Positions 9,169-39,847 of a stretch of DNA of 64,000 nucleotides are shown piece by piece. How positions within the stretch are numbered: the first letter of the stretch is position 1; each line of letters opens with the position of its first letter. The position numbers and the translations under genes were made by a program. Source of the DNA: an uncultured Actinomycetes bacterium (GTDB taxonomy: Bacteria; Actinomycetota; Thermoleophilia; Solirubrobacterales; Solirubrobacteraceae); assembly GCA_963719305.1 (NCBI GenBank), contig CAVRBL010000011.1, positions 388,459 through 452,458 on the forward strand. The letters are read 5' to 3'. Under the pieces are notes generated by a model that had not been told where the DNA came from, made no database searches, and saw only the letters and a list, made by a program, of their open reading frames with translations.

Positions 9169-9176
9169 TCAAATAT
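9163..9176. promoter_or_regulatory. Regulon motif copy 2 (perfect palindrome ATTTGATCAAAT)
   Basis: Just upstream of the RidA ATG at 9191. Confidence 0.55.
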
Positions 9177-9190
9177 GGTACGGTGCCTCC

Positions 9191-9598
9191 ATGCCTAAGC
9201 GGGGCCTCGGGCTGGTGCGCCACGCCGGCAAGGTCATGGTCTGGGGGAAGGGCGCGGTCGCCGGTGACTTCGTCTTCCTCTCTGGCGCTGAGGCCCGCGC
9301 CGACGACACGGACGTGCCAGTCCAGGGCATCAGGGCGCAGACCGAGCTCGCGCTCAACCGGATCAAGCAGCGGCTCGCGGAGGCCGGGGCGTCTCTGGAG
9401 GACGTGGTCAAGTTCGTCTGGTACCTCACCGACCGGAGCCTGGAGACGGAGTTCTACGAGGCGCGCGACGGCTGGCTCGAGCGCAACTGCAAGGCGCTGC
9501 TGGACGAGCGCTCCTACGGCTCGACTCTCCTGATCGTCGGCCTCGCGCGCGAGGACATGCTGGTCGAGATCGACTGCATCGCGTACGTCGGAGAGTGA
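9191..9598 (+). CDS. RidA/YjgF/UK114 family protein
   Basis: GDFVFLSG, QTELALNRIKQRLAEAGASLEDVVK, STLLIVGLAREDMLVEIDCIA. Confidence 0.88.
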   Translation: MPKRGLGLVRHAGKVMVWGKGAVAGDFVFLSGAEARADDTDVPVQGIRAQTELALNRIKQRLAEAGASLEDVVKFVWYLTDRSLETEFYEARDGWLERNCKALLDERSYGSTLLIVGLAREDMLVEIDCIAYVGE

Positions 9599-9629
9599 CC
9601 CGGCGCAAGCCCCTAGGGACGTAAGAGCC

Positions 9630-22354: not shown

Positions 22355-23538
22355 CGGCCTCCGCGGGTTCGAAAGTCGTCGGGGTAGCTTCCAAGCTGTT
22401 CGCAGCCGGTTGCGGTGATCAGGAAGTTGTCCTCCACGCGCAGCCCGCCGCCGTCGGGCCAATACAGGCCGGGCTCAATCGCGAGCACCATGCCTTCCAG
22501 TAGCTCGCCGCTCCCTGCCTGGTGGGCGTAGGGCGGCTCGTGCGCGCGGGCGCCGACGCCGTGCGCGATCGGGTGCGACGGCTGACCTGGGTAGCCAAGC
22601 TCGTCTATTCCGGCCCGAACCAGGCGATCGAGCTCGGCCAGACTCGCGCCCGGGCGCAGGTGGTCGATCGCGCGGCGATACACGCCTAGCAGGCCGTCGG
22701 TTAGCTCGTCGTACCGCGGCGTGAGCTCGCCGGGGCAGGCGTTCTTGGTCAGGTCGCTCCAGTAACCGTCCGCGCAGACCCAGATCTCGAGCAGCGTCGG
22801 CTCGTGCTCGCACACGCGCGTATCACTGGTGGCGGTGAATGTGCGGATACTGGGGCCCGACCACACGAGCGTGAACGCGCGCGCCAGCCGCACCTTGCCC
22901 TTGTAGCCGACGCCTTGCGAGTGCACGTGTCCCTCGAACAGCGCGCCGACTTCGCTGGTCTTCATTCCCGGCCGGATGTTCTCGCGAACGTACTCCATTG
23001 CGCTCGCCGCCAGCTCGGCCGCCAGCCGCATCCGCTCGATCTCCTGCTCGGTCTTGACCGCCCGGGCCTGGGCGAGCAGCGGCGAGACGTCTACCACCTC
23101 CTGACAGACGTCCGCGAACCGGTCGAACCACGGCATCGAGAACACCGTCGGCTCGGCGACCATCTGATCGGCCGCCTGGGTGCCCTGGGAGACCTCCAGG
23201 CCCACCCGGCCGGTGAGATCTCGCTCCGCCAGCAATCCTAGGCAGACGTCCTGGGCGCGGTACCACGGCGGCCGTGGGTCATCGGGGTGGTAGCCGTCGA
23301 ACGGTCGCACGTCGTCGGTCCAGCTGGTCTGATGCGCCTCCTCGAGCTGGGGCTCGAGCACGACCAGCACCGGCTCGCCGTGAGCGGGGAACACGAGGGC
23401 GTCGTAGCCTTTCATGCACCAGTAGCCGTCCAGGTACACGAGGTTGTCGGGCGCTCTGGCCACGATCGCGTCCAGCTCCAGCTCGGCCATAAGCGACCTG
23501 ACCCGGTCAAGCTTGTGCTGGTCGCGAGGCCAGCTCAT
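22351..23538 (-). CDS. M24 (Xaa-Pro peptidase/creatinase fold) hydrolase
   Basis: ARAVKTEQEI, GYWSDLTK, AHGVG, HEPP, AIEPG, RVEDN. Confidence 0.85.
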   Translation of the reverse strand: MSWPRDQHKLDRVRSLMAELELDAIVARAPDNLVYLDGYWCMKGYDALVFPAHGEPVLVVLEPQLEEAHQTSWTDDVRPFDGYHPDDPRPPWYRAQDVCLGLLAERDLTGRVGLEVSQGTQAADQMVAEPTVFSMPWFDRFADVCQEVVDVSPLLAQARAVKTEQEIERMRLAAELAASAMEYVRENIRPGMKTSEVGALFEGHVHSQGVGYKGKVRLARAFTLVWSGPSIRTFTATSDTRVCEHEPTLLEIWVCADGYWSDLTKNACPGELTPRYDELTDGLLGVYRRAIDHLRPGASLAELDRLVRAGIDELGYPGQPSHPIAHGVGARAHEPPYAHQAGSGELLEGMVLAIEPGLYWPDGGGLRVEDNFLITATGCEQLGSYPDDFRTRGGR

Positions 23539-23559
23539 CGTCGCACGGCCGGCCCACCT

Positions 23560-24459
23560 CTACCAGCGTTTCAACGGCGGCGCCGGCACTCCGTGTGCGT
23601 CCTCCCAGGAGACCACCGGGTTGCGCAGCACGCCGATTCCCTCGATCTCGCACTCGACCGTGTCGCCGGGTTGCAGGTACCACTTGTGCGCATCGGTGCG
23701 GAAGCCCGCAACGCCGGCAACGGTTCCGAGCGACAGGACGTCGCCCGGGCTGTAGTCGAGCGCCGAGTAGTGGGCAATGACCTGGGGGATCGTCTGCCAC
23801 ATGTTCCCCGACACCGACTGCTGGCGGAGCTCGCGGTTGACCCGCAGCTCCATTCGCAGCTTGTATGGATCCGGGATCTCATCCGGAGTCACGATCCAGG
23901 GCCCCAAGGGGCAGAACGTGTCGATCGCCTTGCAGAACGAGAACACGCCCGAGCGCATCTCGCGCCGCTGGATGTCGCGTGCCGTGATGTCGTTGAAGAT
24001 CAAGTAGCCGCCGATGTAATCGGCCGCCTCCTGCTCGCCGAAATGGCTGCCGGCGCGGTTGATCACCACCGCCAGCTCGAGCTCATAGTCGAGCTCGTTG
24101 GTCAAGTGAGAGGGGTACACGATCGGGTCCTCGGGGCCGATGATCGCGTCGATGTTCTGGAAGAACACGATCCACGGGGCGATCTCGTGCGACCAGTTGA
24201 CGTTCTTTGACTCCTCTTCGTGCTCCCGGTAGTTGCCCGAGGTGTGGAAGAACTTCTTCGGCACGATCGGAGCGCGCAGCCGCACGTCAGCCAGCGCCAG
24301 CCGCTCGCCGCTAGCGCTCCTCGCGACCGTCGCGGGGTCCTCGCCGGACTCGAACAGTCCCCGCATCGACTCGACCCCATCAATCGTGGTCACGTAGCCA
24401 TCCTGTAGCGCCCCGCAACGTGTGCGTCCGTCGGCATCGGTGAAGGTCGCGAGCTTCAC
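23560..24459 (-). CDS. Fumarylacetoacetate hydrolase family protein
   Basis: LDYELELAVVI, NDITARD, KAIDTFCPLGP, PGDVLSLGT, GIGVLRN. Confidence 0.9.
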   Translation of the reverse strand: MKLATFTDADGRTRCGALQDGYVTTIDGVESMRGLFESGEDPATVARSASGERLALADVRLRAPIVPKKFFHTSGNYREHEEESKNVNWSHEIAPWIVFFQNIDAIIGPEDPIVYPSHLTNELDYELELAVVINRAGSHFGEQEAADYIGGYLIFNDITARDIQRREMRSGVFSFCKAIDTFCPLGPWIVTPDEIPDPYKLRMELRVNRELRQQSVSGNMWQTIPQVIAHYSALDYSPGDVLSLGTVAGVAGFRTDAHKWYLQPGDTVECEIEGIGVLRNPVVSWEDAHGVPAPPLKRW

Positions 24460-25715
24460 GCCACGACCCCGCACACCTTGGCCGCCACCAGCGCGTAGAC
24501 CGTCGCGATCCTGACCAGTCCCTCGATGTCCAGGCTCTCGCCTTCCGCTCCCGGCAGTCCGCTTGAGGTGCCGTAGTTGACGGCCTCGATCCCATAGCGC
24601 GTGAGCGCCGAGGCGTCCGAGAACCAGTGCACCACGTCGCGCTCGGGCCGGCGGCCGAACACGCGCTCGTGGCCTGAGTCGATCGCCCTGATCAGCGGAT
24701 GGGCTTCGTCGATCTCGGCGCCGGGGGCGGTCACGAAGATCTCGTACTCGATCCCGAACTCAGGATGCTCGGCGCGGAGCTCGGCGACGAGCCGCGCCAG
24801 CTCTCGCTTGGCGTCTTGCATCGGCATCGTCGGCGGCACGCGCACGTCGAGGAACAGGTCGGTCCGGTTCGGGGTGCGGCTCACTCGCCAAGGATGCCCG
24901 CCCGCGATCGAACCGATGTTGACGACGCCCTGCTTGTCCCGGTAGGACGCACGCTGCTCCCACTCCGGGATCCAGGCGAGCACGCGGTCGATCACGGGCC
25001 GCATGCGCACGATCGAGTTTTGGTCCATACGCCCGGCCGAGAAGGCGGTATGAACGAACGGGCCGCGGGTAGAGATCCGCGCCCACATGGCGCCGTAGTG
25101 CCCGACCACGATCCGCTGCTCGGTGGGCTCGCCGAGGATGCACATGTCAGCGATGCCGCCGTGGGTGACGAGGTGGCGGCTGCCTGCCGCGTAGCCGCGA
25201 TACTCCCGCCCGCGAAACTCCTCGCCCCACTGGGTCTTCTCGATCTCGCCGACGACGCAGGCGAGCATCACATCCCCGTTCAGCCTGAGGCCGGCGTCGC
25301 GAATCGCCCTGACCGCCTCCAAGTAGCAGGCCAGCGCTCCCTTCATATTGGAGATCCCGAGGCCGTAGATCCGCCCGTCCTTGACCGCCGCCATCGGCTG
25401 GAAGCCCGGGATTCCGCGGAGATGGGGTTCACGACCGGAATAGGAGGTATCCATGTGGCCGTTGAACATCAGGGTTGGCCCGCCGCCGGCCCCCTCGAGC
25501 GTCCCGATCACGTTGGGCCGACCATCCTCGACTTCCTGCCAGGCCGTACGCAAGCCGGCGTCCTCGAGCGCCGCCCGCACCGTCTCGGCCATCGCCTGCT
25601 CCGAGCCAGTGGGACTGGGGATGTCGACGTACGCGCACGCGGTGTCGGTCAGCCGGCGCTCGTCGATCCGCGCGACCAGGCGCTCGCTCAGCTGGTCGGT
25701 GGCAGCGAGCGTCAT
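24456..25715 (-). CDS. M20/ArgE-DapE-like metallohydrolase (non-canonical ligands)
   Basis: PSPTGSE, RPNVIG, NGHMDT, GLGISNMKG, GEPT; own ATG overlapping the LLM stop. Confidence 0.8.
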   Translation of the reverse strand: MTLAATDQLSERLVARIDERRLTDTACAYVDIPSPTGSEQAMAETVRAALEDAGLRTAWQEVEDGRPNVIGTLEGAGGGPTLMFNGHMDTSYSGREPHLRGIPGFQPMAAVKDGRIYGLGISNMKGALACYLEAVRAIRDAGLRLNGDVMLACVVGEIEKTQWGEEFRGREYRGYAAGSRHLVTHGGIADMCILGEPTEQRIVVGHYGAMWARISTRGPFVHTAFSAGRMDQNSIVRMRPVIDRVLAWIPEWEQRASYRDKQGVVNIGSIAGGHPWRVSRTPNRTDLFLDVRVPPTMPMQDAKRELARLVAELRAEHPEFGIEYEIFVTAPGAEIDEAHPLIRAIDSGHERVFGRRPERDVVHWFSDASALTRYGIEAVNYGTSSGLPGAEGESLDIEGLVRIATVYALVAAKVCGVVA

Positions 25716-26789
25716 GCCGCGGTGCGTACCTGTTCGCGGAAGTGAGGGAGCACTTCCTGCGGCGAACAGCTCGATCTGCCGCTCCCGCTGATCGCCCCAA
25801 AGCTCGAGCATCACGTGCGTGCAGCCGGCGTCCCGGTACTCCTCGATCGCTTCGATGCAGTCGCTCGGCGTGCCCGCGATGGGCCGCGTCTTGTCGAGGA
25901 CTTCGTCGCTGACGGCGGCCGCCGCCGCAAGCCTCCCGCCGGCCTCCATCGCGTCGGCGATCGGCCGGATCTCTTCCTGGCTGAGCTCGGCCAGCTCGAG
26001 CAGCGTGTCGGCCGAGGCCTGAATGTTCTGAACCTTGTTGGCGAGATACATCCCGGCTATTTCCCGCGCCCCCTGCCGCCCCCTGTCCCGATCCTCGTCG
26101 ATCGACGCCACGACCGTGCAGCCGAGGTCGATCTGATCGGGATCGCGGCCGGTCTTGGCGGCGCCCTGGCGAAGGTTCTCGCGCGCGTAGCGGACGAACG
26201 CGGGCGTGGTGATGCTGGGCGTGAGCAGTCCGTCGGCCTCCTCGCCGGCGTACTGCTGCATCCGCGGTCCGGTTCCCGCCACGTAAATCGGAACGGTCCC
26301 GCGAGGCGTATCCGCGTCCGCCGACAACGGCGGGACGACCGCGGTGAACGCCTTGCCTTGGTAGGAGAATTCGCTCCCCTCGAGCACTCCCCGGACGATC
26401 CGGACCGCGTCGCGGGTTGGGTTCAGCGGCTTGACGGCCTCGGCGCCGATCTCCTTCATGAAGATCCGGCTTGCGCCGAAGCCGAGCCTGAAGCGTCCCG
26501 GCGCGAGCTCCTGGGTGACGCGCGCGTCCATCGCCACCTGAATCGGGTGCCGGGTGAAGGGCGAGATGATCCCCCAGCCGATCGTGAGCCGGTCGGTCTC
26601 GCGCGCGATCAGCGCCGACAGCACGGTCGAGCTGCGGGCCTCCATCTGGTGCTTGCGCCACCACGGGTACGCCTCGGCCAGCCAGATCGTGTCGAACCCG
26701 CGCCGGTCTAGCGCCCGCGCATGGGCGAGGATCTCTTCCAGCGGCTCCATCGTGAGCTGCATCACGCCAATGCGGAGTGGAAGAGGCAC
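25712..26789 (-). CDS. LLM-class flavin-dependent oxidoreductase (close paralog of 5877-6944; frameshift near its 3' end)
   Basis: WLAEAYPWWRKHQMEARSST, IGWGIISPFTRHP; alternate frame ends QEVLPHFREQVRTAA*. Confidence 0.85.
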
Positions 26790-26794
26790 CTCGT

Positions 26795-26808
26795 ATATTT
26801 GATCAGAA
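26795..26808. promoter_or_regulatory. Regulon motif copy 5 (partial)
   Basis: ATATTTGATCAGAA in the 47 bp divergent intergenic gap. Confidence 0.5.
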
Positions 26809-26836
26809 GACTCCGACAGGTGCAAGAATTCCGGAT

Positions 26837-28006
26837 ATGTCGATCGAGCTGACCGGCGAGGTCGAGCGCCGCTACCGGCTGATCAGGGAAGCCGCTGCCC
26901 GCGACGGTCTCGATGCGGTGCTCGTGTGCGCCAGCGAGTACACCGGGTTCGAGGGGGCGATGTTCTACGTGTCGGGGTTTCGCATCCTGCACCGCTACGC
27001 GTACGTGCTGCTGCCGCTGGACGAGCCCCCGACGAACATCTTCCCCGGCGAGGGGCGCTGGGTCGGCGACCACTCGGAGGGATGGGTCGAGGATCGGGTG
27101 TTCGCCGAGACCCCCGGCAAGTGGATCGCGCAGCGGATCCGCGAGCGCGGCTGGAGGATGGTCGGGGTCTACGGCCTGGACCTCGTGATGCCGGTCCGCG
27201 ACTACGTGGAGCTGCCGCCCGAGCGGATCGTGCGCTGGGACCAGGAATTCGATTACGCACGGGCGTGCAAATCAAAGGCGGAACTCGAGTCGGTGCGAGA
27301 GTCGGTAGCGATCAACGAAGCCGGCGTGCTCGCAGTGGCCGACGCGTGGGAGCCCGGCAAGCCCGAATCAGAACTGATGGCCGTGGCCGAGCAGACGTTC
27401 GTCAGCCGTGGCACGCGTCGGCTCACGATGGACATGGTCCTGACGGGCCCCGACGGCGCCGCCCTGCCGGAGATGCGGCTGCCCGACGAGAAGCGGCGGG
27501 TCGCCGCCGGCGACATGCTGATCTACGGGCTCGAGATCGCCGGCCCCGGCGGCCACTGGGTCGAGGTCTCGCGCCCGATCTGCGGCGGCGAGCCGTCGGC
27601 CGAGTCCAAGCGGATGATGGAGGCGTACCGCGAGTACCACGAGATCTGTGCCGCGGAAATGCATTCCGGAGCCTCGTCGCGGGATGTGCATCGAGCGGTC
27701 GCGCGGCCGTTCCTGGAGCGGGGCTGGAAGCTCGGTCACGTCACCGGCCACTCGATCGGGATGACGATGATCGAGCATCCCCGGATCGGCGACGCGTTCG
27801 ACGTCGAGCTGCGGGCGGACATGGTGTGCTCGATGCACCCGCACGTGATCTCCGAGGACGAACGCACATGCCTGTACTTCCAGGACACCTGGCACGTGCA
27901 GGGCGATCGAGCGGTGGCGCTCAGCCGGCTACCGGTCGACTTCCTGGATCCACGCGCGGCGCCGGCAATGGCGGCCGCACTAAATGAGGAGGCTGCATGG
28001 CAGTAG
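26837..28006 (+). CDS. M24 fold hydrolase, creatinase-like (metal ligands substituted)
   Basis: ARACKSKAEL, GHSIG..IEHP; SMHPH and FQDT replace the two Glu ligands. Confidence 0.8.
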   Translation: MSIELTGEVERRYRLIREAAARDGLDAVLVCASEYTGFEGAMFYVSGFRILHRYAYVLLPLDEPPTNIFPGEGRWVGDHSEGWVEDRVFAETPGKWIAQRIRERGWRMVGVYGLDLVMPVRDYVELPPERIVRWDQEFDYARACKSKAELESVRESVAINEAGVLAVADAWEPGKPESELMAVAEQTFVSRGTRRLTMDMVLTGPDGAALPEMRLPDEKRRVAAGDMLIYGLEIAGPGGHWVEVSRPICGGEPSAESKRMMEAYREYHEICAAEMHSGASSRDVHRAVARPFLERGWKLGHVTGHSIGMTMIEHPRIGDAFDVELRADMVCSMHPHVISEDERTCLYFQDTWHVQGDRAVALSRLPVDFLDPRAAPAMAAALNEEAAWQ

Positions 28007-29163
28007 AGCTGAAACAGGAGCTCGGAGCCCGGCGCGAGTCCGTCCCGTTCCGGGTCGTGGATGCCGACGGCAAAGTCACCGAGCTGACGTACTCATCGCC
28101 ACGGCCGGCGGCCGAGCACGACGAGCTCGCGGTGGTTGAGCAGCTGCCGTGGTTCGACCATGGCCAGCCGCTGCACAATTGGATGCTGCACGAGACCGAC
28201 TTCTACGACGAGGTCGAGCAGATCTGGGGCAAGCGATGGGGCGCGGAGGGAATCGGCCGGCTGCGCGAGGTACTCGTCTCGCGGCCGACTGAGAACGAAA
28301 CCCGCCCCGAGTACGCGGCCGAATGGCAGTACTACTACTCGACGGCGGCAGGAAATGCCGACCTCGGCCGCCTCCAGGCCCAATTCGACCAGTACTACGA
28401 GGTGCTCGCCGACAACGGCGTGCGCGTCAACTACGTCGAGCCGCCGGTGCCCGCGATCGGCGCGTACGGCTACCTGAAGAACCTGGTGACGCTGGCCGGT
28501 GGTGGCCTCGTTGTGAAAGGGGGGGCCATCATCCACCGGATGGGGCTCGGCTCCTGGCAGCGCGGGCGCGAGGTGATCTGGTCCAAGACGCTGAGCGCGC
28601 TGGGCGTCCCGATCTACCTCACGATCCACGGCGGCGGCATCGGCGAGCCCGGCGCCGGGCGCTGGCTTGACTCAAAGACGTTCGTGTTCAACGACAGCGT
28701 GGTCGCGAACGAGGAGGGCCTACGCCAGATCGAGTTCATCCTCGGCGGTCTGGGGATCGAGCTGGTCAGAACGCACACCCCAGGTTGGGTGGGAAGCACC
28801 GGCCACGGCAACCTCGGCACCACTCACGCCGACATGTTCCTGATGGTTCCCGATGTCGGTCTCGCAGTGCTCGCGCCGCACCTCGTGGACTACGCGTTTG
28901 TCCGCTACCTGAAACGCCGCGACATCAAGATCATCGAGGTGCCGGTCGAGGAATACTGGGACCTCGCGGTCAACGGGGTGACGCTAGAGCCCGGCAAGGT
29001 GATCTTGAACGCGGGCTCCCCTCAGACCCTCAAGGCGCTCGAGCGCGAGGGAATCGAGGTGATCCAGGTGGACTTCTCCGAGAGCCACAAGTTCGCGATC
29101 GCCGGACTGCATTGCGCGACCCTCGAGCTTGCCCGCGAGCAGCCGGGTCCGGCTCTGCCGTGA
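27997..29163 (+). CDS. Amidinotransferase/arginine deiminase (pentein) superfamily protein
   Basis: GRLREVLVSRP, RGRE, HADM, NGVTLEPGKV, C-terminal GLHCATLEL. Confidence 0.8.
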   Translation: MAVELKQELGARRESVPFRVVDADGKVTELTYSSPRPAAEHDELAVVEQLPWFDHGQPLHNWMLHETDFYDEVEQIWGKRWGAEGIGRLREVLVSRPTENETRPEYAAEWQYYYSTAAGNADLGRLQAQFDQYYEVLADNGVRVNYVEPPVPAIGAYGYLKNLVTLAGGGLVVKGGAIIHRMGLGSWQRGREVIWSKTLSALGVPIYLTIHGGGIGEPGAGRWLDSKTFVFNDSVVANEEGLRQIEFILGGLGIELVRTHTPGWVGSTGHGNLGTTHADMFLMVPDVGLAVLAPHLVDYAFVRYLKRRDIKIIEVPVEEYWDLAVNGVTLEPGKVILNAGSPQTLKALEREGIEVIQVDFSESHKFAIAGLHCATLELAREQPGPALP

Positions 29164-29936
29164 GCCGGCTCGGGCTCGGCGTGGATGACCTCGGCCAGGG
29201 CGAGCCGGCGCTGCTGCTGCTGACGGGTTGGTGCTCTTCTCGCACGCGCTGGGCGCTGACGGCGCCGTTGCTGGCGGCCAAGCGGCGAGTGATCAACTTC
29301 GAGTGGCGCGGGCACGGCGAGTCGACGCCCGCGAGCGAGGATTTCGGCACCGCCGAGATGGTGGAGGACGCCCTCGCCGTGATCGCGGCAACCGAGCCGC
29401 AAACCGTGATCCCGTGCTCGGCTTCTCATTCGGGCTGGGTCGCGATCGAACTGCGGCGCAGGTTGGGAGAGCGCGTGCCGAGGATCGTCCATCTCGACTG
29501 GATGGTGACCGAGCCGTCCGCTGCTTACATGAAGCTGCTCGGGGACCTGCAGTCCGAGCAGGGCTGGCCGGAAGCCCGCGACACACTGTTTGAGATCTGG
29601 CGCGCAGGCGACGAGAGTCCGGAGATCGGCGAGGCCGTCGACGTTATGAGCCGGCAGGACGCAGCAATGTGGATCCGGTCTGGCCGCGAGATCGAGGCTT
29701 CATACCACCGCCACGGGAGTCCCCTGAAGGCGCTCGAGAAGCTCGATCCACCCCCGAGAGTGCTGCACCTCTACGGGCAGCCACCGTCCGCCGATTATCT
29801 CGCCGCACAGGAGCAGTTCGCCGCCCAGCACGACTGGTTCGAAGTCAAGCGGCTGAACGCGCGCACGCACTTCTCGATGCTCGAGGCGCCGCACGATGTG
29901 GCTGCGGCGATCGAAGCCGCCGTGAGCCGTGCCTGA
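29160..29936 (+). CDS. HOD/QDO/AqdC-like cofactor-independent alpha/beta-hydrolase-fold dioxygenase
   Basis: LLLxGWC, WRGHG, SHSGW, DW, LFxxW, WxRSGRxIExxYxRxGSP, HxxxQP, QHxWF and THF are collinear with the HOD sequence as recalled. Confidence 0.8.
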   Translation: MSRLGLGVDDLGQGEPALLLLTGWCSSRTRWALTAPLLAAKRRVINFEWRGHGESTPASEDFGTAEMVEDALAVIAATEPQTVIPCSASHSGWVAIELRRRLGERVPRIVHLDWMVTEPSAAYMKLLGDLQSEQGWPEARDTLFEIWRAGDESPEIGEAVDVMSRQDAAMWIRSGREIEASYHRHGSPLKALEKLDPPPRVLHLYGQPPSADYLAAQEQFAAQHDWFEVKRLNARTHFSMLEAPHDVAAAIEAAVSRA

Positions 29937-30327
29937 CGACTCCGACAGGACACGGCGGGCACGGGGCATCGCGGCATACGCCAGCCAGTTCGGCATCCCC
30001 GAGGAGGAGGTCGAGGCGCACCTCACCTCGCTAGTCGGTCCGCGAATGGCCCGGGAAGCGATCATCGCCCAGGGTGGCGGCGCGTGGGAGGAAGGGGTGC
30101 TGTCGCTGCGCGATCGGAGCCTGATCGTGCTCGCAAGCCTGATCACCCTGGGTGGGGCAGAAGCTCGCCTCCGCGGTCACGTTCGGTGGGCGGTCGAGCA
30201 CGGGGTGACGCCGGCCCAGATCGAAGAGCTTGGGACGCTGCTGGCGATCTATGCCGGCTATGCGCGCGCCTCGACGGCGATGGAGACGATCCGCGAAGCG
30301 CTTGCTGCCATGGAGCAACCGCGGTGA
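29929..30327 (+). CDS. Carboxymuconolactone decarboxylase (CMD/AhpD) family protein
   Basis: LSLRDRSLI, LRGHVRWAVEHGVT, YAGYARA. Confidence 0.85.
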   Translation: MPDDSDRTRRARGIAAYASQFGIPEEEVEAHLTSLVGPRMAREAIIAQGGGAWEEGVLSLRDRSLIVLASLITLGGAEARLRGHVRWAVEHGVTPAQIEELGTLLAIYAGYARASTAMETIREALAAMEQPR

Positions 30328-31526
30328 AGGTGGCGATCGCAGGCGGCGGCGTGGGAGGTCTCACAGCAGCGATCGCACTCGCCCGCAAGGGCATCGAGGC
30401 AGAGGTCTATGAGCAGGCGCCGGCGATCAACGCGATTGGTGCATCGCTTCAACTCGGGCCAAATGCACTGCGCTTGATGGATGAACTTGGGCTGCTGCCC
30501 GCGCTGCGCCGCATCGGCGTGCTTCCGGATGCGGTGGACTTGATTCGCTGGGACGACGGCTCGCTGCTCCTGCATACTCCGATGGGGCCGGAGATGCAGG
30601 ACTACTTTGGCGCGCCGCAACTGGACTTCTTCCGGCCCGACCTCCATCACCTGCTCGCCGACTCCCTGGCTCCGGGGATGCTCCGGTTCGGTGCTCGGGT
30701 CGTCGGGGTGGGCCAGCGGACCGACGGGGTGACGCTATCCCTGGCCGATGGCACCAGCGTCGAGGCGGACGTCGTCATCGCCGCGGATGGAATCCGCTCG
30801 CCGATCCGCCAGCAGCTCTTCGGAGCCGAGGACCCGATCTTCTCCGGGACTGTCGTCTACCGCGGCGTAGCGCCGCGCGAGCGGGTGATCGATCTCCATC
30901 CCGAGCACATCAACTACTACTGGCTCGGTCCCTACCGTCACGGCGTCTCCTACTGGATCTCCGCCGGTGCCCTACTGGCCGTCAACTGCGCCGTACAGCA
31001 TGCCGAGTGGGCCCAGGAGTCGTGGGCCCTAGAGGCTTCAGTCCAGGAAGCACTGCCCTACTTCGAGGGCTGGCACCAGCCGCTGCTCGAGCGGATCCGG
31101 GCCTGCGACATCTTTCTGCGCGGTGCGGTGTTCGTGCGCCAACCCCTCGAGCACTGGGCAGCGGGGCGCGTGGCGCTGCTTGGCGATGCCGCTCACGCGA
31201 TGGAGCCTTTCCAAGCGCAGGGGGCCGCACAGGCGGTCGAGGACGCGTTCGTGTTGGCCGAATGCTTGGCGGCCGCCGGCGACGATCCCGTTTCGGGGCT
31301 CTCCCGCTACGAGCTGATCCGCCGCAAGCGCGCCGAGGAGCTGCAGACCTCCTCGGCCGCCGCCGCCAACGTCTTCTACCTGCCCGACGGCGAGGAGCAG
31401 CGTGACCGGGACGCGGCCTACGGGACGCTGCGCGAGACCCAGCCCTACGGGCCGCGCCAGCGGATCTGGGAATACGACGTCCGGGCGGCGCTTTCGGGCT
31501 CTACGCCGAAGCTGCCCACAACTTGA
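30324..31526 (+). CDS. Group A FAD-dependent monooxygenase (salicylate hydroxylase/NicC-like)
   Basis: IAGGGVGG, ADGIRS, LLGDAAHAMEPFQAQGAAQAVED. Confidence 0.9.
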   Translation: MKVAIAGGGVGGLTAAIALARKGIEAEVYEQAPAINAIGASLQLGPNALRLMDELGLLPALRRIGVLPDAVDLIRWDDGSLLLHTPMGPEMQDYFGAPQLDFFRPDLHHLLADSLAPGMLRFGARVVGVGQRTDGVTLSLADGTSVEADVVIAADGIRSPIRQQLFGAEDPIFSGTVVYRGVAPRERVIDLHPEHINYYWLGPYRHGVSYWISAGALLAVNCAVQHAEWAQESWALEASVQEALPYFEGWHQPLLERIRACDIFLRGAVFVRQPLEHWAAGRVALLGDAAHAMEPFQAQGAAQAVEDAFVLAECLAAAGDDPVSGLSRYELIRRKRAEELQTSSAAAANVFYLPDGEEQRDRDAAYGTLRETQPYGPRQRIWEYDVRAALSGSTPKLPTT

Positions 31527-31541
31527 GGAGGCCGATCGACC

Positions 31542-32455
31542 ATGACCGACCAACCGCCCGCCCCAGTAGTCGCCAGTGCGCCTGAAGAAATCGCCGACGG
31601 CGTCTACGTCATACCGGACCGAGGCGTGCCCCTTGTCCCGAACGTCGGGATCGTGGTCGGCTCGCGGGCCACGCTCGTGGTCGACACCGGCATGGGGCCT
31701 GGCAACGGGGCAAACCGTCCGCAGCCACGCAGAGCAGCTCTCCACAGGGCGCCCGCTGTTTCTGACGATTACACACTTCCACCCGGAGCACGGCTACGGC
31801 GCGCAGGCGTTCGCCGACGGTGCGACGGTGCTGTACAACCGCGGGCAGCTCGAGGAGCTGCGCGCAAAGGGACAGCCATACCTCGAGATGTTCAGGACGT
31901 TCGGCGACTCCGTCGCCGAGCAGCTCGAGGGCGTGTCACTGGTCGAACCGCACCTCACCTACGACGGCGCCGCCGAGCTGATCGTCGGCGGCTCAAGCTG
32001 CGCAAATGCGGACCTGGGGGTTGGCACATACCGGCGCCGACCAGATCGTGTTCCTCCCCGAGCAGCGGATTCTGTTCACCGGCGACCTCGTCGAGAACCG
32101 GTGCTTTGCGATCTTCCCCTGGTTCCCACCGGATGACACCGATGTCGACGGCGACCGCTGGATCGCCGTGCTCGAGCAGCTCGAGCGGCTCGAGCCGGCG
32201 ACCGTCGTGCCGGGGCACGGCGAGGTTGGCGACGCGGGGGTGATCGCGACGGCGCGCGAATACCTGGAGCTGCTCCGCGCCGAGACGCGCCGGCTGGCGG
32301 ACGAGGGCGCCTCGGAGGAGGAGGTCGCAACCCAGCTCGACGAATCGATGCGGGCCCTGCACCAGGATTGGGCCCAGCCCGAGTGGATCGCCTCCGGCGC
32401 CCGCTACTTCTATGCGGCGTACGGGCACGAGCGCGGGGCAGGGGGAAGGCCATAA
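31542..32455 (+). CDS. Metallo-beta-lactamase fold hydrolase (frameshifts ~31710 and ~31995)
   Basis: NVGIVVG..LVVDTG, THFHPEH, AHTGAD, FTGDLV, VPGHG. Confidence 0.82.
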
Positions 32456-32460
32456 CCGGC

Positions 32461-34068
32461 ATGGCGCGTAGCCCGCTGCGGGACATCCCGCCGGGCGAGC
32501 GCACGCTGCCTGCGCTGCTCGAGCGGCAGGGGCGTATCTACGGCGATCGACCCCTGTTTCGCTTCGGGGCGCTCGAGCTCACCTACGGCCAGGTGCGGGA
32601 CCTGGCCGCGCGCGCGGCAGGTGGGCTGCGGGCGGCGGGGGTGGGGCCGGGCGAACGAGTGGCGGCGATGTGCGAGAACGGGCCGGCGCTGTTTGAGCTG
32701 ATCCTCGGCTGCGCCTGGTCGGGCGCGATCGTGGTACCGCTCAACACGGCGGCGAGGGGCGCGCAACTAGAGCACATGCTCCGCAGCTGCGGCGCGCGGT
32801 GGCTGCTGGCCGACGGGCCGCTCATCGAGCGGCTTGAGGATGTCGGCGGTGATGTGGCGCTGGAACAGGTCTGGGCCGACGCGGGACGAACAGCAGTCGC
32901 GGGCCGCTCTGTGTCGCCGCGGCCGGAGCCGGTTGATGGTCTTGCCGCCCATGACGTGGGTCCGGGCGACACAGCGGCGATCCTGTACACGTCGGGCACC
33001 ACCGGTCCCTCCAAGGGAGTGTGCTGCCCGCATGCGCAGTTGTATTGGTGGGGCGTGCTGGTCTCGGAGTCGCTCGCGATCCGCGAGGGCGATGTGCTTT
33101 ACACCTGTCTGCCGCTGTTTCACACCAACGCGCTGACCGCGTTCGTGCAGGCAGTTGTGAGCGGTGCGACGTTTGTGCTGGGCGAGCGTTTCTCCGCCTC
33201 ACGCTTCTGGGCGCGGGTCGGTGAAGCCGATGCCGACGTCACCTACCTGCTCGGCGCGATGGTCAGCATCCTGATGTCGAGGCAGCCGGAGCCGGCGGAC
33301 CGCGCTCACCACGTGCGCGTGGCGCTCGCTCCGGCCACGCCAGCGCGGCTGTTCGGCCCCTTCCGCGAGCGCTTCGGCGTCGAGCTGGTCGAGGGCTACG
33401 GCTCGACCGAGACGAACAACGCGATCGCCGCCCCGGACCCGGGTGCGGGGCGGCCGGGCTACATGGGGCTCGTGCGCGAGGGATTCGCGGCTCGCGTCGT
33501 CGACGAGGACGACGAGCAGGTTCCCGATGGAGAACCTGGCGAGCTGGTGCTGCGCCACGAGGAGCCGTACGCGTTCGCGACGGGCTACTGGGGGATGCCC
33601 GAGCAGACTGTCAGGGCCTGGCGGAACCTCTGGTTTCACACCGGCGATCGCGTCGTGCGCGAGCCCGACGGCTGGTTCCGGTTCATCGACCGGGCCAAGG
33701 ACGCGATTCGCCGCCGCGGAGAGAACATCTCCTCCTGGGAGGTCGAGCAGGCACTACTCGAGCACGAGGCGGTCGAAGCCGCGGCGGTATTCCCGGTCCC
33801 ATCCGAGCTCGGCGAGGACGACGTGATGGCGGCGGTTGTGCTCGAGCCCGGCCGGACGCTCGCTCCCAGCGACCTGATCACGCATTGCGAGCCGCGCCTC
33901 GCGCGCTTCGCGGTCCCCCGGTACCTTGAGTTCGTCGACGAGCTGCCGGTGACCGAGAATGGGAAGGTCCGCAAACAGCTCTTGCGCCAACGCGGGGTTA
34001 CCGAGACGACCTGGGACCGCGAGGCGGCGACCGTCGAGGGTGCCTTCAGCGCTCGTCGAGGCCGATGA
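32461..34068 (+). CDS. ATP-dependent acyl-CoA ligase (CaiC-like)
   Basis: YTSGTTGPSKG, PLFH, GYGSTE, WFHTGD, DRAKDAIRRRGENISS, GKVRK. Confidence 0.9.
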   Translation: MARSPLRDIPPGERTLPALLERQGRIYGDRPLFRFGALELTYGQVRDLAARAAGGLRAAGVGPGERVAAMCENGPALFELILGCAWSGAIVVPLNTAARGAQLEHMLRSCGARWLLADGPLIERLEDVGGDVALEQVWADAGRTAVAGRSVSPRPEPVDGLAAHDVGPGDTAAILYTSGTTGPSKGVCCPHAQLYWWGVLVSESLAIREGDVLYTCLPLFHTNALTAFVQAVVSGATFVLGERFSASRFWARVGEADADVTYLLGAMVSILMSRQPEPADRAHHVRVALAPATPARLFGPFRERFGVELVEGYGSTETNNAIAAPDPGAGRPGYMGLVREGFAARVVDEDDEQVPDGEPGELVLRHEEPYAFATGYWGMPEQTVRAWRNLWFHTGDRVVREPDGWFRFIDRAKDAIRRRGENISSWEVEQALLEHEAVEAAAVFPVPSELGEDDVMAAVVLEPGRTLAPSDLITHCEPRLARFAVPRYLEFVDELPVTENGKVRKQLLRQRGVTETTWDREAATVEGAFSARRGR

Positions 34069-35077
34069 CGACCTTGCCTGCAACGCCTCCCCGCTCAAGC
34101 ATGCGGTGACCGTCCGCGACCTGCTCGAGCGGTAGCACGTCGGCGATCAACGGTTGAAAGTGACCGGCGTTCAGGTGGCGGGCCGCGGCCAGCGCAGCGT
34201 TCATCGTGCCGAGCCGCGAACCGAGGATTCGCACCTGGTTGACGAACATGGCCGTCACGTCCATCGTCACAACGTCGCCGCTGGTCGCGCCCGCGCTGAC
34301 GATCGTGCCGCCGGACGCGCAGATCGCCAGCGACCGCTCCCAAGTGGCCGCAGCCACGTGCTCGAACACGATCGTCGCGCCCTGGCCGTCGGTGTACTCG
34401 AGCACCCGCGCGACCACATCGTCGGTGTAGTGGTCGACGATCAGCTCCGGGTGCAGCGCCTCCAGCGCCCTGCGCTTGGGTTCCCCGCCAGCGCTGGCGA
34501 TCACACGCGCGCCCGCGAGCCGCGCGATCTCGATCGCCGCGCTGCCGAGGCCGCTGGTCCCGGCCCATACGAACACCGTGTCCGCCGGCCCGACGCCCGC
34601 CTTGCCGACCAGCATCTCCCATGCCGTGATGTAGGAGTTTGCAAAGCACGCGACGTGCTCCGCGGGAATCTCGGGGTTGACAGCGATCGCGAGCTCCTGC
34701 GGCACGAGCGCCAGCTCGGCGTAGGCGCCGTGGTAGACGTCGAAGGCGACGCAGTACTGCGAGCGATCGCGCCGGCAAGGCTCGCAGCGCCCGCAGGTGA
34801 TGTATGGGTTGATCGTGATGCGCTGGCCTGGCGCAAACCGTTCGACCCCCGCTCCGACCCCGGCGACGGTCCCACACAGGTCGATCCCGAGGACCGCCGG
34901 CAGCGGCACGCGGTACGCAGGATGGGGGTGTCCCGCGCGCATCCACAGATCGCGGCGGTTGACCGAGGTGGCAGCCACCCTGACCAGTAGCTCGCCGGGT
35001 CCGGGAACGGGGTCCGGCAGCTCCTCGGCGGAAAGCACTTCCGGTCCGCCCAGCTCGTGCATGACGACCGCGCGCAT
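34046..35077 (-). CDS. MDR family NAD(P)H-dependent oxidoreductase (structural Zn site only)
   Basis: GGPEVL, SVNRRD (no catalytic Cys), CGRCEPC..C, GTSGLG, GKVVI. Confidence 0.88.
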   Translation of the reverse strand: MRAVVMHELGGPEVLSAEELPDPVPGPGELLVRVAATSVNRRDLWMRAGHPHPAYRVPLPAVLGIDLCGTVAGVGAGVERFAPGQRITINPYITCGRCEPCRRDRSQYCVAFDVYHGAYAELALVPQELAIAVNPEIPAEHVACFANSYITAWEMLVGKAGVGPADTVFVWAGTSGLGSAAIEIARLAGARVIASAGGEPKRRALEALHPELIVDHYTDDVVARVLEYTDGQGATIVFEHVAAATWERSLAICASGGTIVSAGATSGDVVTMDVTAMFVNQVRILGSRLGTMNAALAAARHLNAGHFQPLIADVLPLEQVADGHRMLERGGVAGKVVIGLDER

Positions 35078-36138: not shown

Positions 36139-38178
36139 ATGGCGCGGCTGGGCATCGACATCGGCGGCACGTTCGTGGACTTGGTCCTGGCCACGACGGA
36201 TGACGGCTTGGTCTTCGAGAAGGTGCTCGCCGAGCCCGCGAACGTTCTGGGATCAATTACCCGCGGCGTCGAGCAACTGCTGAAGCGCGCCGACGTCGAT
36301 GGATCCGAGGTTGTCGAGGTTCTGCATGCGACGACGCGGGGATCGAACATCGTCCTCGAGCGCGCCGGGCCGACAACGGCGTTAGTGGTGACGCGCGGCT
36401 TCAGGGACGTGCTTCAGATTCAGCGTGCCCTGCGCTGGAGCATGTACGACGTACAGCTCGATAAGCCTGAGCCGCTTGTGCCTCGTTCGCTCGCGTTTGA
36501 GGTAGGCGAACGGATGCTTGCCGACGGGTCAGTGCACGTCGCGCTCGACGAGGACGAGGTACGCGCCATCGCCGCGCAGATCCGCGCTGCCGGAGTCGAG
36601 GCGGTGGCGGTGACGTTCCTGCACTCGTACGCCAATCTTGCGCACGAGCGAGCCGCGGCCGCGGTGCTCAAGGCTGAGTTGCCTGACGTGCCGATCACGA
36701 TCTCGAGCGACGTGTCGCTTCAGGCGAGGGAGTACGAGCGCGCGAACACCGCGGTGGTGAATGTATACGTATCCACCGCGATCGCCGAATATATGGCTCT
36801 GCTCGGCGAGTCGCTGGAGGGGGTCGGCGTATCGGCGCCGATCTGGGTCATGCAGTCGAGCGGCGGGCTCGCGTCCGTGCGCGACGCGATTGAGCGGCCG
36901 GTGCGCGTCATTGAATCTGGTCCGGCTGCCAGCGTGGTCGGCGCGGCCGCTTTCGGCAAGGCGGCTGGCAGCGACAATGTCATCTCCTTCGACATGGGCG
37001 GCACGACCGCCAAGGTCGCGGTGGTGAGCATGGGCATCCCTGCGATGACCACGTACTTCGAGCTCCAGCGCGTCGGCAGCCGGCGGGGAAGCGGCCTCGC
37101 CGTTGACATACCCGCGCTCGATCTCGTCGAGGTGGGGACAGGCGGCGGGAGCATTGCCGAGGTGCGCGAGGGCACGCTCCGCGTCGGGCCGCGTAGCGCG
37201 GGCGCTGACCCCGGCCCTGCGTGCTACGGCCGCGGTGCCACCGCGCCGACCGTCACCGACGCGAACCTCCTGCTCGGGTATTACGACCCAGAAATCTTCG
37301 CCGGTGGCCTCGTCCTTGATCTGGCTGCTGCCAAGGCCGCCATCAACCGTCTTGCGGACCAGCTCGGCGTCGAGCCGATCGAAGCCGCTTGGGGCATCCA
37401 CGACGTCGCGACGACCGATATGGAGCATGCCATCCGGCTTGTGTCGATCAATCGCGGGTTCGACCCGCGGGATCACGCGCTCGTCTGTACAGGCGGCGCG
37501 GCACCGGCACACGGGTCGCGTCTCGCGCACGCGCTCGGATGCAAACGCGCGATGATCCCGCTTGCCGCCAGCGGTGGATCCGCTCGCGGCCTGCTTGAGG
37601 CCGCGGCCTCGACCGAGGTGACGAGGACCGCGCTAGTCAGGCTAGACGGCGTGGAGTCGGCAGCGAGTTGCTCAGAGACGATCAGCGAGATGCTGCAGGA
37701 GGCAGAGCGCAGCTGGTCTGGAGCCGGCACCGAGAGCATCGTGCGGTTGACACTCGGCATGCGCTACGTCGGTCAGGGCCACGAGTTGCTGGTGCCGATC
37801 GAGCCCGACTTGCGGGACCCGGCCGGACTCGCGGAGCGCTTTCACCAGCGTTACGAGCGTGTGTACGGCTATCGCGATGATCAGCCCGTGGAAGTCGCCA
37901 CGTGGCAGGTTTCACTGGTGCGCCGGGCTCCTGCGCCCGTCGGAAGCTTTGCGGAGTACAGAGCGGCGGACTCGGTTCGAGCCTCTCGGCGCTCTGCTTA
38001 CTTTCCCGAGACCGGGATGATCGAGGTCGACGTGCATCCCAGGGCATTGCTGCACGAGGGTGACGCGGTCGAGGGTCCATGCTTGGTGGCGGAGCCGACC
38101 ACGACGACGGTCGTGCTGCCAGGCGACCGGGCCGAGGTTGTCGCCGATCTGTCCCTCCTGATCCACATCGCGCAGTGA
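36139..38178 (+). CDS. hyuA: Hydantoinase A/oxoprolinase ATP-binding subunit
   Basis: GIDIGGTFVD, EYERANT, ESGPAA, DMGGTT, GPACYGRG, MRYVGQGHE. Confidence 0.92.
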   Translation: MARLGIDIGGTFVDLVLATTDDGLVFEKVLAEPANVLGSITRGVEQLLKRADVDGSEVVEVLHATTRGSNIVLERAGPTTALVVTRGFRDVLQIQRALRWSMYDVQLDKPEPLVPRSLAFEVGERMLADGSVHVALDEDEVRAIAAQIRAAGVEAVAVTFLHSYANLAHERAAAAVLKAELPDVPITISSDVSLQAREYERANTAVVNVYVSTAIAEYMALLGESLEGVGVSAPIWVMQSSGGLASVRDAIERPVRVIESGPAASVVGAAAFGKAAGSDNVISFDMGGTTAKVAVVSMGIPAMTTYFELQRVGSRRGSGLAVDIPALDLVEVGTGGGSIAEVREGTLRVGPRSAGADPGPACYGRGATAPTVTDANLLLGYYDPEIFAGGLVLDLAAAKAAINRLADQLGVEPIEAAWGIHDVATTDMEHAIRLVSINRGFDPRDHALVCTGGAAPAHGSRLAHALGCKRAMIPLAASGGSARGLLEAAASTEVTRTALVRLDGVESAASCSETISEMLQEAERSWSGAGTESIVRLTLGMRYVGQGHELLVPIEPDLRDPAGLAERFHQRYERVYGYRDDQPVEVATWQVSLVRRAPAPVGSFAEYRAADSVRASRRSAYFPETGMIEVDVHPRALLHEGDAVEGPCLVAEPTTTTVVLPGDRAEVVADLSLLIHIAQ

Positions 38179-39847
38179 CGCATCCACTCGACATAGCGGT
38201 CATCTGGGGACGGCTCGCCGCGATCGCCGAAGAGATGGCCGAGGCGCAGCAACGCACCGCCTACTCAGACCAGGTGAGGGAAGGCGGCGACTACTCGACC
38301 GCGATCTTCGACGCATCCGGCCGCATGCTGGCGCAGGCGAACCGGAGCCCCGCGCACCTGGGAGCGATGCCGGCGGCGGTGCGGAACATACTGACCGTAT
38401 ATCCCGCAGACGCGCTCCGGCCGCGCGACATCGTCGTGATGAACGATCCCTACATGGGCTCTGGACACCTACCGGATATGTTCGCCATGAGCCCCTCGTT
38501 CGTCGGTGATCGGCTCGTCGGTTTCGTCGTCAGCTGCGTGCATCTGACAGACGTCGGAGGGCCGGCTCCCGGTAGCCAGGCGGTGGTGGGCGTGACCGAG
38601 CTGGTTCAGGAAGGGCTCCGGTTCCTTCCCACCCTGCTCTACCGGCGCGGTGAGCCAGTTCGCGAGATCATCCAGCTGATCGCCGCGAACGTACGCGTTC
38701 CCGAGGCGGTCCTCGGCGATATCCGCGCGCAACGGGCCGCGCTTCACGTTGGCGCCCTGAGGCTGGCCGAGGTCCACGCACAGCGGGGATCAGATCTCGT
38801 CGAGGCCGTCGGCGAAGAGATCCTTGAGCGGTCGGAGCAGGCGGTGAGGTCAGAGCTGAGGACGATCCCAAACGGAAAGGTGCACTTCGTCGACCACATC
38901 GACGACTATGGCCCGGGCGACGCCGCCAATCCGCATCGAGGTGACGATCACGGTCGACGACGATGAAATCCTCTTCGACTTCACGCGGGACCGATCCCCA
39001 GACGCCGTCGTCGCTGAACTGCACCCTCTCCTACGTCGAGGCGTACTGCTACTGGTCCACGAAGGCGATCACGACGCGGGATGAGATACCGCAGAATGAG
39101 GGCCAGTTGCGCCCGGTGAAGGTAATCGCAGAGCCCGGGTCGTTCTTCAATCCGCTCCCGCCGGCCGCGCTCGGCGGCCGAGCACTTGATGAACCAGCGG
39201 ATCGTGGAGCTCATCTTCGGCGCTCTGGCGCAGGCAGTCCCGGAGCGGGTCTGCGCGGCCAGCGGGCAATGGCTGAACCCTATCTTCGGGGGTGTCGATC
39301 CCAGGACGGGCAAGCCCTTCATCTTCTACGACTACGTCATGGGTGGAGTCGGTGCGCGGATGCACAAGGACGGCATCGATGCCATGTCGCCCGTCGTCTC
39401 GGTCGAAAATATCCCGGTCGAGGCGCAGGAGGCCCGCAATCCGATTATCGTCGAGCGCCTGGAGCTCATTCCTGACTCTGGCGGCGCAGGCCGATTCCGC
39501 GGTGGCCTCAGCGTGCGCAAGGACGTGCGGATTCTCGGCACCGACGTTGTTCTCTCGAACCTGACCGATCGTCAGGTGTTCAGCGCCATACGGACTCGAC
39601 GGGGGCAGCCCCGGGTCGCTGGGCGAGACAGTCATGAATCCAGGAACGCCGGCGGAGCGCAGGCTCCATTCCAAGGATCTAGTTGATGTCGCTCAGGGTG
39701 ACGTCATCAGCTTCCGCTGCTCGGGCAGCGGTGGCATCGGATCACCGGTGGAACGCTCACGCGAGAAGGTTCTGACGCGATGTGCGCGAAGGACTCGTCA
39801 CGGCCGACGCCGCGAGGACGATATACGAGCTGAAGGTCACCGATTGA
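38175..39847 (+). CDS. hyuB: Hydantoinase B/oxoprolinase subunit (several frameshifts)
   Basis: RTAYS..VREGGDYS, NDPYMGSGHLPD, HLTDVGG, QEGL, DSGGAGRFRGG, GSGGIGSP. Confidence 0.88.

Follow-up and report, generated by a model that had tools for sequence, protein, structure and literature searches.

To our knowledge, three or four cofactor-free dioxygenases whose fold is that of the alpha/beta-hydrolases have been studied, all of them on 3-hydroxy-4-quinolones that carry a hydrogen, a methyl or an alkyl group at position 2. These enzymes are the model for metal- and cofactor-free O2 activation on a hydrolase scaffold and are also candidate anti-virulence enzymes, by quenching the Pseudomonas quinolone signal (PQS). 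They include HOD, encoded by meqE of Arthrobacter pAL1, QDO of Pseudomonas putida 33/1, AqdC of Mycobacteroides abscessus and AqdC1 of Rhodococcus erythropolis BG43. On the pAL1 pathway anthranilate is activated by a CoA ligase. Here we describe a HOD-like gene at positions 29160–29936 of a 64,000-nucleotide stretch of DNA, referred to as the window, from an uncultured Actinomycetes bacterium of the Solirubrobacteraceae (assembly GCA_963719305.1, contig CAVRBL010000011.1, positions 388,459 to 452,458 of the forward strand). The window has a G+C content of ~68% and derives from contig 11 of a metagenome-assembled genome (MAG) of 4.15 Mb, which is distributed over 12 contigs and is 86.5% complete. 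The operon around this gene probably serves the breakdown of an N-heteroaromatic compound, by a route in which the substrate would be hydroxylated, cleaved with release of CO, deacylated and activated with CoA, and the substrate would probably not be one of the classical quinolones.

The family of the HOD-like protein is clear from both its sequence and its predicted structure. A phmmer search against all PDB sequences returned AqdC (E = 1e-44), HOD (1e-44) and QDO (2e-41) over nearly the full length, whereas the next alpha/beta-hydrolase appeared at 3e-6. The AlphaFold (AF2) model, built on 35 homologues, has a mean pLDDT of 96.9. Foldseek ranks 1–19 are occupied by AqdC, HOD or QDO chains only, with TM scores of 0.89–0.94 and root-mean-square deviations of 1.5–1.9 Å; the next matches, at E ~1e-13, are ordinary esterases and KAI2/D14 proteins. 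AqdC and AqdC1 are the best match (TM 0.92–0.94), and HOD and QDO display the same fold with its helical cap (TM 0.91–0.93) at 33–37% sequence identity. As judged from sequence and model, the protein is a true member of the HOD/AqdC family and not an ordinary serine hydrolase. An earlier, sequence-only reading of this DNA had recognized the likeness to HOD along the whole length of the protein: this likeness is borne out, and the grouping with ordinary serine hydrolases that the same reading had envisaged as its undoing did not occur.

Within the family, the protein belongs to a branch of its own. An exhaustive profile-free search of 1.84 billion representatives (clusters at 50% identity) retrieved 69 family clusters at E < 1e-30 and 265 at E < 1e-10, which indicates that the family is small. 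More than 900 database proteins match the HOD-like protein at E < 1e-10, and the nearest 120, at 65–76% identity, stem almost entirely from soil metagenomes, the named ones being from Solirubrobacteraceae. In a 75-row tree the window protein falls in a 15-row subclade (SH-aLRT 99) nested in a 61-row clade (SH-aLRT 99) that contains neither HOD nor AqdC1. A more careful 50-row tree reproduces the same split: what remains of the 61-row clade after pruning, the 37 rows outside the HOD side, comes together as a single clade with an ultrafast bootstrap (UFboot) of 84 and an SH-aLRT of 99. Two further representatives, P0178 (AqdC-like, 1e-98 to PDB 6RA2) and P0174 (best PDB match QDO), both lie on the HOD side, so that every characterized type falls outside the window clade and the window protein groups with none of them. 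By sequence, the window clade lies in the same superfamily branch as a sister clade, and most full-length representatives in the tree belong to it. In the wider clade the nucleophile elbow is often Ala or Gly, whereas most rows retain His251 (HOD numbering); most also retain Asp126, with Ser, Asn or Glu in its place in several. The clade thus does not depend on a Ser nucleophile, and this pattern speaks against its members being serine hydrolases in general.

The clade also reaches enterobacterial plasmids. Pantoea agglomerans megaplasmids and the Rahnella aquatilis plasmid CP042359.1 (positions 7959–8747 of the locus retrieved, L010) carry window-clade homologues of 37–40% identity with an Ala elbow. 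Their neighbours encode an ABM monooxygenase, a PNPOx-family protein and an SDR, a gene context that differs again from that of the window.

Alignment with HOD from pAL1 and AqdC1 from pRLCBG43 indicates how far the active site has been preserved. In HOD numbering, W36, S101, H102, D126 (in an LDW motif), W160, W185 and H251 (in THF) are all kept, and H38 and H100 are replaced by Ser (in GWCSS) and Ala (in SASHS), respectively, as had been noticed from the sequence beforehand. The corresponding residues of the window protein, with those of HOD in brackets, are W24 (W36), S26 (H38), R28 (H40), A88 (H100), S89 (S101), H90 (H102), S91 (G103), D113 (D126), Y123 (F136), W147 (W160), W171 (W185), H237 (H251) and F238 (F252); residues 23–24 are GW and Ser89 is the elbow residue of SASHS. 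The H237/D113 dyad, invariant among near-clade members, is the counterpart of the H251/D126 dyad that acts as general base in HOD (PMC3961685). The window protein shares with HOD and QDO the His/Asp dyad, the Trp36 loop, in which the Trp backbone binds the NH of the ring in the characterized enzymes, and the Ser elbow. The elbow Ser is not needed for oxygenation and is Ala in mycobacterial AqdC (PMC3961685, PMC7894191), an enzyme that in addition possesses a distal alkyl-chain tunnel (PMC7894191); the window protein, in contrast, keeps the Ser.

Nineteen ligand-contacting residues of HOD have been listed (PMC10548524), and 15 of the 19 are identical in the HOD-like protein, the changes being H38S, H100A, G103S and F136Y. 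With the exception of F136, which is Tyr here, all cap-domain contact residues are the same; the cage of the cap shared with HOD and QDO consists of L140, L143, L156, W160, M177, W185, S188, G189 and I192. The O2-path residues P132, L140, G189 and I192 are retained. Conservation of the cage that surrounds the benzo ring in HOD favours a quinolone-like, bicyclic substrate. The polar residues S26, S91 and Y123, together with Arg28, which is present throughout the clade, suggest that this substrate may bear a polar or anionic substituent. The pocket had been described from the sequence as remodelled, which overstates the case. AqdC1, annotated in its record as a PQS dioxygenase, has Gly38 and Ala100 and so lacks both histidines, as the window protein does, and among the representatives on the HOD side position 38 is H, G, A, E or Q and position 100 is H, A, Q, F, T or C. 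As both sites vary in the characterized branch, loss of the two histidines is not diagnostic and was rejected as a sign of remodelling. Better arguments for distinctness are the separate clade, its signature of Arg at position 40 (H40R in the window protein; mostly His on the HOD side) and Ala or Ser at position 103 (Gly on the HOD side), and a different set of conserved partners.

These partners are encoded around the HOD-like gene in seven same-strand genes that occupy positions 26838–34068 and are flanked by a convergent gene and a divergent operon:

26838–28006, plus strand: M24 (creatinase/prolidase-like) metallohydrolase, the first gene of the operon (Pfam Peptidase_M24, 1.6e-22)
27997–29163, plus strand: pentein cysteine hydrolase of the guanidino-group-modifying superfamily, NnhA-like (NnhA homology, E 1.2e-25)
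29160–29936, plus strand: HOD/QDO/AqdC-family protein of the alpha/beta-hydrolase fold, predicted cofactor-free 2,4-dioxygenase (PDB phmmer, E 1e-44)
29929–30327, plus strand: CMD-family protein, PcaC-like, probable decarboxylase (Pfam CMD 7.4e-14; NCBIfam PcaC 1.5e-12, under the curated cut-off)
30324–31526, plus strand: group A FAD monooxygenase (FMO) of the TrlE/NicC/3HB6H type (Pfam FAD_binding_3, 1.1e-27)
31543–32455, plus strand: metallo-beta-lactamase-fold (MBL) hydrolase, in three frames with two frameshifts (tblastn with the orthologue of locus L036)
32461–34068, plus strand: ATP-dependent acyl/aryl-CoA ligase (NCBIfam PRK06155, 796 bits, cut-off 722)
34046–35077, minus strand: Zn-dependent alcohol dehydrogenase (ADH), convergent with the ligase gene (Pfam ADH_N and ADH_zinc_N)
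18084–26825, minus strand: divergent conserved operon of a luciferase-like monooxygenase (LLM) fused to M20, an FAA hydrolase, an M24 protein, an HMGL-like protein and two ApbA reductases (Pfam)

The positions of all seven operon genes agree with those in the sequence-only reading, the extent of the operon being corrected in that the M24 gene stands at its head, before the pentein gene. Successive overlaps of 10, 4, 8 and 4 nucleotides join the M24, pentein, HOD-like, CMD and FMO genes. The HOD-like gene starts with a GTG at 29160, inside the stop of the pentein gene, and the FMO gene with a GTG at 30324, in a GTGA overlap with the CMD gene. As overlaps of 4–10 nucleotides link the first five genes, the translational coupling proposed for the HOD-like gene with its pentein, CMD and FMO neighbours (4, 8 and 4 nucleotides) appears real. 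Further downstream, the MBL gene begins 16 nucleotides past the FMO gene and is preceded by GGAGG, and the ligase gene follows 5 nucleotides after the MBL stop. An MBL hydrolase and a CoA ligase had been predicted at this place and both are present, the former with the qualification that its gene contains two frameshifts.

A scan of one genome per species, with the near-clade alignment as query, identified 24 related loci, all from MAGs assigned to Solirubrobacterales, Gaiellaceae or unclassified Actinomycetota. Orthologues of the window proteins were counted in these loci within 10 kb of the HOD-like gene. The FMO is the most frequent companion, with orthologues of 55–77% identity in 15 of the 24 loci, followed by the CMD protein (11/24). 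A pentein orthologue (83–87% identity) lies directly upstream of the HOD-like gene in nine loci, a CoA ligase orthologue lies downstream in nine, and an ADH orthologue (74–78%) occurs in eight, mostly right after the ligase gene. MBL orthologues of 60% identity or more are found in 7/24 loci. M24 orthologues (53–59%) precede the pentein gene in L020, L027 and L028. Orthologues of the divergent LLM/M20/FAAH/M24 operon (74–86%) stand beside the HOD-like gene in 9/24 loci, and this linkage is observed in Solirubrobacterales only.

The pentein, HOD-like, CMD and ligase genes form a fixed block in the Solirubrobacterales loci, and L026 exhibits the gene order of the window. Pentein, ligase and ADH genes are an addition of the Solirubrobacterales, and the Gaiellaceae loci and other distant ones lack them. 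Linkage to the FMO is maintained in three different arrangements: the FMO gene is divergent and upstream in L024, L025 and L032; MBL, FMO and HOD-like genes are contiguous in L033, L035 and L036, with the CMD gene opposite; and the FMO gene follows the HOD-like gene in L031 and possibly in L039. This linkage outlasts rearrangement across families, which argues that FMO, HOD-like protein, MBL hydrolase and CMD protein act together.

Two Gaiellaceae loci provide a hint as to the type of substrate. In L031 (positions 6363–9960) the 2Fe-2S and FAD subunits and a molybdopterin-domain open reading frame (ORF) of an XDH-family molybdenum (Mo) hydroxylase lie directly upstream of the HOD-like gene, and in L039 (7462–9207) a molybdopterin large subunit is encoded at the same place, upstream of both the HOD-like gene and the FMO gene. 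On pAL1 the quinaldine cluster has the same layout, with quinaldine 4-oxidase adjoining the FMO and HOD, and this similarity points to an N-heteroaromatic substrate. The nearest Mo-hydroxylase gene in the source genome encodes an XDH-family molybdopterin large subunit (positions 383334–384074 of contig 11), ~4.4 kb before the window start. At ~34 kb from the HOD-like gene it was not counted as part of the operon.

The aqdABC clusters share the operon logic of the window, with a hydrolase, an FAD monooxygenase and a dioxygenase, and an FAD monooxygenase is linked to the dioxygenase gene on pAL1 as well as in the window. In contrast, MBL and CMD proteins are the partners in the window, in place of an alpha/beta-hydrolase amidase, and the aqd cluster is devoid of CMD, pentein and CoA ligase genes. 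The FMO also differs: it is 28% identical to the pAL1 monooxygenase, which is of another subgroup, and 27% identical to AqdB1, whose type is found in the aqd cluster in place of the TrlE/NicC type of the window. At these values an assignment of the FMO as an AqdB/PqsH-type quinolone 3-monooxygenase was rejected.

The solved structures nearest to the FMO are TrlE (9.8e-74), NicC (6e-62) and a decarboxylative vanillate 1-hydroxylase (4.5e-59), the likeness to TrlE, NicC and the vanillate/4-hydroxybenzoate 1-hydroxylases spanning E-values of 1e-73 to 1e-53. These relatives act on hydroxy-aromatic carboxylates and several of them decarboxylate. They do so in other pathway contexts, and it is by sequence that the window FMO is likened to them. 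Its R180, H206 and Y210 are equivalent to R185, H213 and Y217 of TrlE, in which the Arg and the Tyr hold the substrate carboxylate (PMC11110157). As the Arg/His/Tyr set is kept, the FMO substrate probably carries a carboxylate, and ipso-decarboxylative hydroxylation would be possible. The divergent FMO of L004 is 72% identical to that of the window.

The pentein has 2-nitroimidazole nitrohydrolase NnhA (PDB 9AZG) as its nearest solved relative, with a full-length homology that covers 340 residues (48–387). It shares the EPGA motif with NnhA, and its C373, H277, D279 and E217 correspond to NnhA C357, H260, D262 and E197, whose roles have been described (PMC11659421), whereas NnhA C352 is Ile in the window protein. 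NnhA itself has been placed among uncharacterized penteins distinct from ADI and DDAH (PMC11659421), and the window pentein is one of this group. The relationship is a distant one, with an E-value far weaker than those of within-family matches and a different gene context, and on the evidence of the sequence a nitrohydrolase activity is not implied. The CMD protein contains no Cys in its translation, and hence no CxxC motif, and is therefore not an AhpD-type peroxidase; it resembles PcaC weakly (47.7 bits against a cut-off of 155.7). Among the PDB relatives of the ligase, feruloyl-, benzoate-, oxalate- and anthranilate-CoA ligases match it about equally well (1e-57 to 1e-48).

Taken together, family, fold, active-site residues and conserved linkage suggest an undescribed route of N-heterocycle breakdown, whose reactions, step order and substrate are proposed as follows. 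The FMO would first put a hydroxyl group beside the ring carbonyl of a 4-oxo N-heterocycle; since its substrate is probably carboxylated, this step may be an ipso-decarboxylative hydroxylation. The committed step would be a 2,4-dioxygenolytic cleavage of the ring, carried out by the HOD-like protein with release of CO and no cofactor. In this reaction the H237/D113 dyad would deprotonate the 3-OH group while the backbone carbonyl of Trp24 would hold the ring NH. O2 would add across C2 and C4 at the oxyanion-hole site facing Ser89, and the endoperoxide would collapse to CO and an N-acyl-amino(aryl)carboxylate. The N-acyl group would then be removed by the MBL hydrolase, which belongs to the conserved core, or possibly by the NnhA-like pentein in Solirubrobacterales; the CMD protein would mediate loss of a carboxyl group, and the ligase would convert the remaining acid into its CoA thioester. 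A sequence of hydroxylation, cleavage, deacylation and CoA activation had been suggested before: it fits the conserved linkage (the FMO in 15/24 loci; MBL, FMO and HOD-like genes contiguous in distant relatives), and the choice of MBL or pentein as deacylase is conjectural. The companion suggestion, that the substrate is neither quinaldine nor PQS, is plausible in view of the distinct clade and a TrlE/NicC-like FMO that is only 27–28% identical to its counterparts, and the identity of that substrate is likewise a matter of conjecture.

A more specific version of this scheme can be put forward tentatively. The FMO, HOD-like, MBL and CMD core might constitute a new CO-releasing route that breaks down a 4-oxo N-heterocycle bearing a carboxylate and is widespread among uncultured Thermoleophilia of soil, with kynurenate, 4-quinolone-3-carboxylate or a 4-pyridone carboxylate as candidate substrates. 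The 3-hydroxy-4-oxo intermediate would come from the flavoenzyme, possibly through ipso-decarboxylation; Arg28, Ser26, Ser91 and Tyr123 would bind the anionic substituent, and the pentein would add hydrolytic removal of a substituent in Solirubrobacterales. A literature search for a pathway for kynurenate or a related compound using such an enzyme found nothing relevant. If this version is true, cofactor-free dioxygenation extends beyond 2-H and 2-alkyl quinolones and NnhA-like penteins gain a second function. The locus also gives a context to these uncharacterized penteins, and the residues around the O2 site would be seen in their natural sequence variation in a clade that is both separate and populous. 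The clade has a conserved partner set unlike the known one and probably a new substrate, and it would be the mark of a pathway by which abundant uncultured actinobacteria produce CO in soil.

A number of points weigh against the N-heteroaromatic route favoured here. The window-clade members are known from sequence alone, and sequence does not by itself fix the substrate. With a UFboot of 84, the bootstrap support for the clade is not fully settled. The window subclade has the full Ser-His-Asp triad, which by its composition leaves room for hydrolysis, and the pairing of HOD-like and CMD genes formally mirrors that of PcaD and PcaC. The FMO is, as judged by its sequence, not of the AqdB/PqsH type known to make 3-hydroxy-4-quinolones. 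Confinement of the pentein, ligase and ADH to Solirubrobacterales may mean that they belong to a second pathway that has merged with the first. Finally, the MBL gene, assigned to the conserved core, is twice frameshifted in the assembly.

The question arises of whether the HOD-like protein could be a classical 3-hydroxy-4(1H)-quinolone 2,4-dioxygenase, engaged in quinoline or quinaldine catabolism or in quenching of a quinolone signal. Its substrate would then be 3-hydroxy-4-quinolone or a 2-methyl or 2-alkyl derivative, PQS among them, and would not represent a new class. The shared ligand contacts, cap-domain cage included, and the parallel changes at positions 38 and 100 in AqdC1 are what such an enzyme would be expected to display; the downstream ligase would suit anthranilate activation, and the Mo-hydroxylase genes beside the HOD-like gene in L031 and L039 are in keeping with it. 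The phylogeny tells a different story, as HOD, AqdC1 and the representatives closest to mycobacterial AqdC and to QDO all lie outside the clade, which has its own Arg40 and Ala/Ser103. The partners disagree as well: the FMO is TrlE/NicC-like with carboxylate-binding residues and not AqdB-like, the hydrolase is an MBL protein where the aqd and meq clusters have an alpha/beta-hydrolase amidase, and the known pathways give no role to the CMD protein that is a conserved partner here. On balance a classical substrate is unlikely.

A second alternative makes the HOD-like protein a lactonase, esterase or amidase that acts with the CMD protein, as PcaD does with PcaC, on the monooxygenase product and in the absence of O2-dependent cleavage. 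Ser89, His237 and Asp113 are all in place for such a reaction, the CMD gene is adjacent in 11/24 loci, and the best NCBIfam match of both genes is the bifunctional PcaDC model. The scores of these matches are, however, remote from the cut-off of 390: 50.5 bits for the HOD-like protein and ~48 bits for the CMD protein. Against the PcaD model the HOD-like protein reaches 34.7 bits with a cut-off of 255.85, compared with 156 bits for HOD and AqdC. HOD itself contains the same Ser-His-Asp triad and is a dioxygenase nonetheless (PMC3961685), the elbow is Ala or Gly in many members of the clade, and the annotated neighbours included no intradiol dioxygenase or cycloisomerase whose product a lactonase could use. 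A purely hydrolytic role is accordingly regarded as improbable.

On a separate note, the shared PcaDC matches may echo an ancestral lactonase/decarboxylase pair that gave rise to the dioxygenase lineage.

The least probable alternative, that the linkage is incidental and the seven genes are not one pathway but unrelated modules packed together (M24 and pentein for an amidine- or guanidine-type compound; FMO, HOD-like, MBL and CMD for an aromatic one; ligase and ADH), can draw on the Gaiellaceae and other distant loci without pentein, ligase and ADH, on the varying position and orientation of the FMO gene and on a window rich in hydrolases, hydantoinases and monooxygenases, and is countered by the start/stop overlaps of the first five genes, which argue for co-translation, by the fixed block in Solirubrobacterales and by a core linkage that survives rearrangement.

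As for the frameshifts in the MBL gene, the ORF that starts at 31543 enters an Arg-rich out-of-frame tail. A tblastn search with the intact MBL protein of L036 recovered three collinear pieces, which lie in frames 2, 3 and 1 with identities of 71%, 65% and 77%, respectively, and none of which has an internal stop. The shifts coincide with G-runs, GGGG at ~31705 and GGGGG at ~32015. Two further genes in the window are also split, and many of the relatives come from long-contig MFD MAGs; for these reasons homopolymer errors are the likeliest cause and the frameshifts are probably assembly errors. A decayed pseudogene is unlikely, given that the pieces retain 65–77% identity to an intact orthologue and that the shifts fall in G-runs.

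The first of the other split genes is the HMGL-like gene of the divergent operon (21178–22354, minus strand), in which there is a single frameshift near 21716; each half matches the intact 393-amino-acid orthologue of L004 at 84% identity, which fits indels in a MAG assembly. The second is the hydantoinase B (HyuB) gene (38079–39475, plus strand), which is divided into at least two ORFs, 38079–38966 and 38963–39475, probably by a frameshift, and which is preceded by an intact hydantoinase A gene at 36139–38178.

The divergent operon harbours another junction of this kind. LLM and M20 peptidase domains are encoded in one frame of 789 amino acids (24456–26825, minus strand). The same fusion is present in L004 (771 amino acids), and the two are separate genes overlapping by 4 nucleotides in L003, L005 and L006. 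The joining represents either a genuine recurrent fusion or an indel at the junction.

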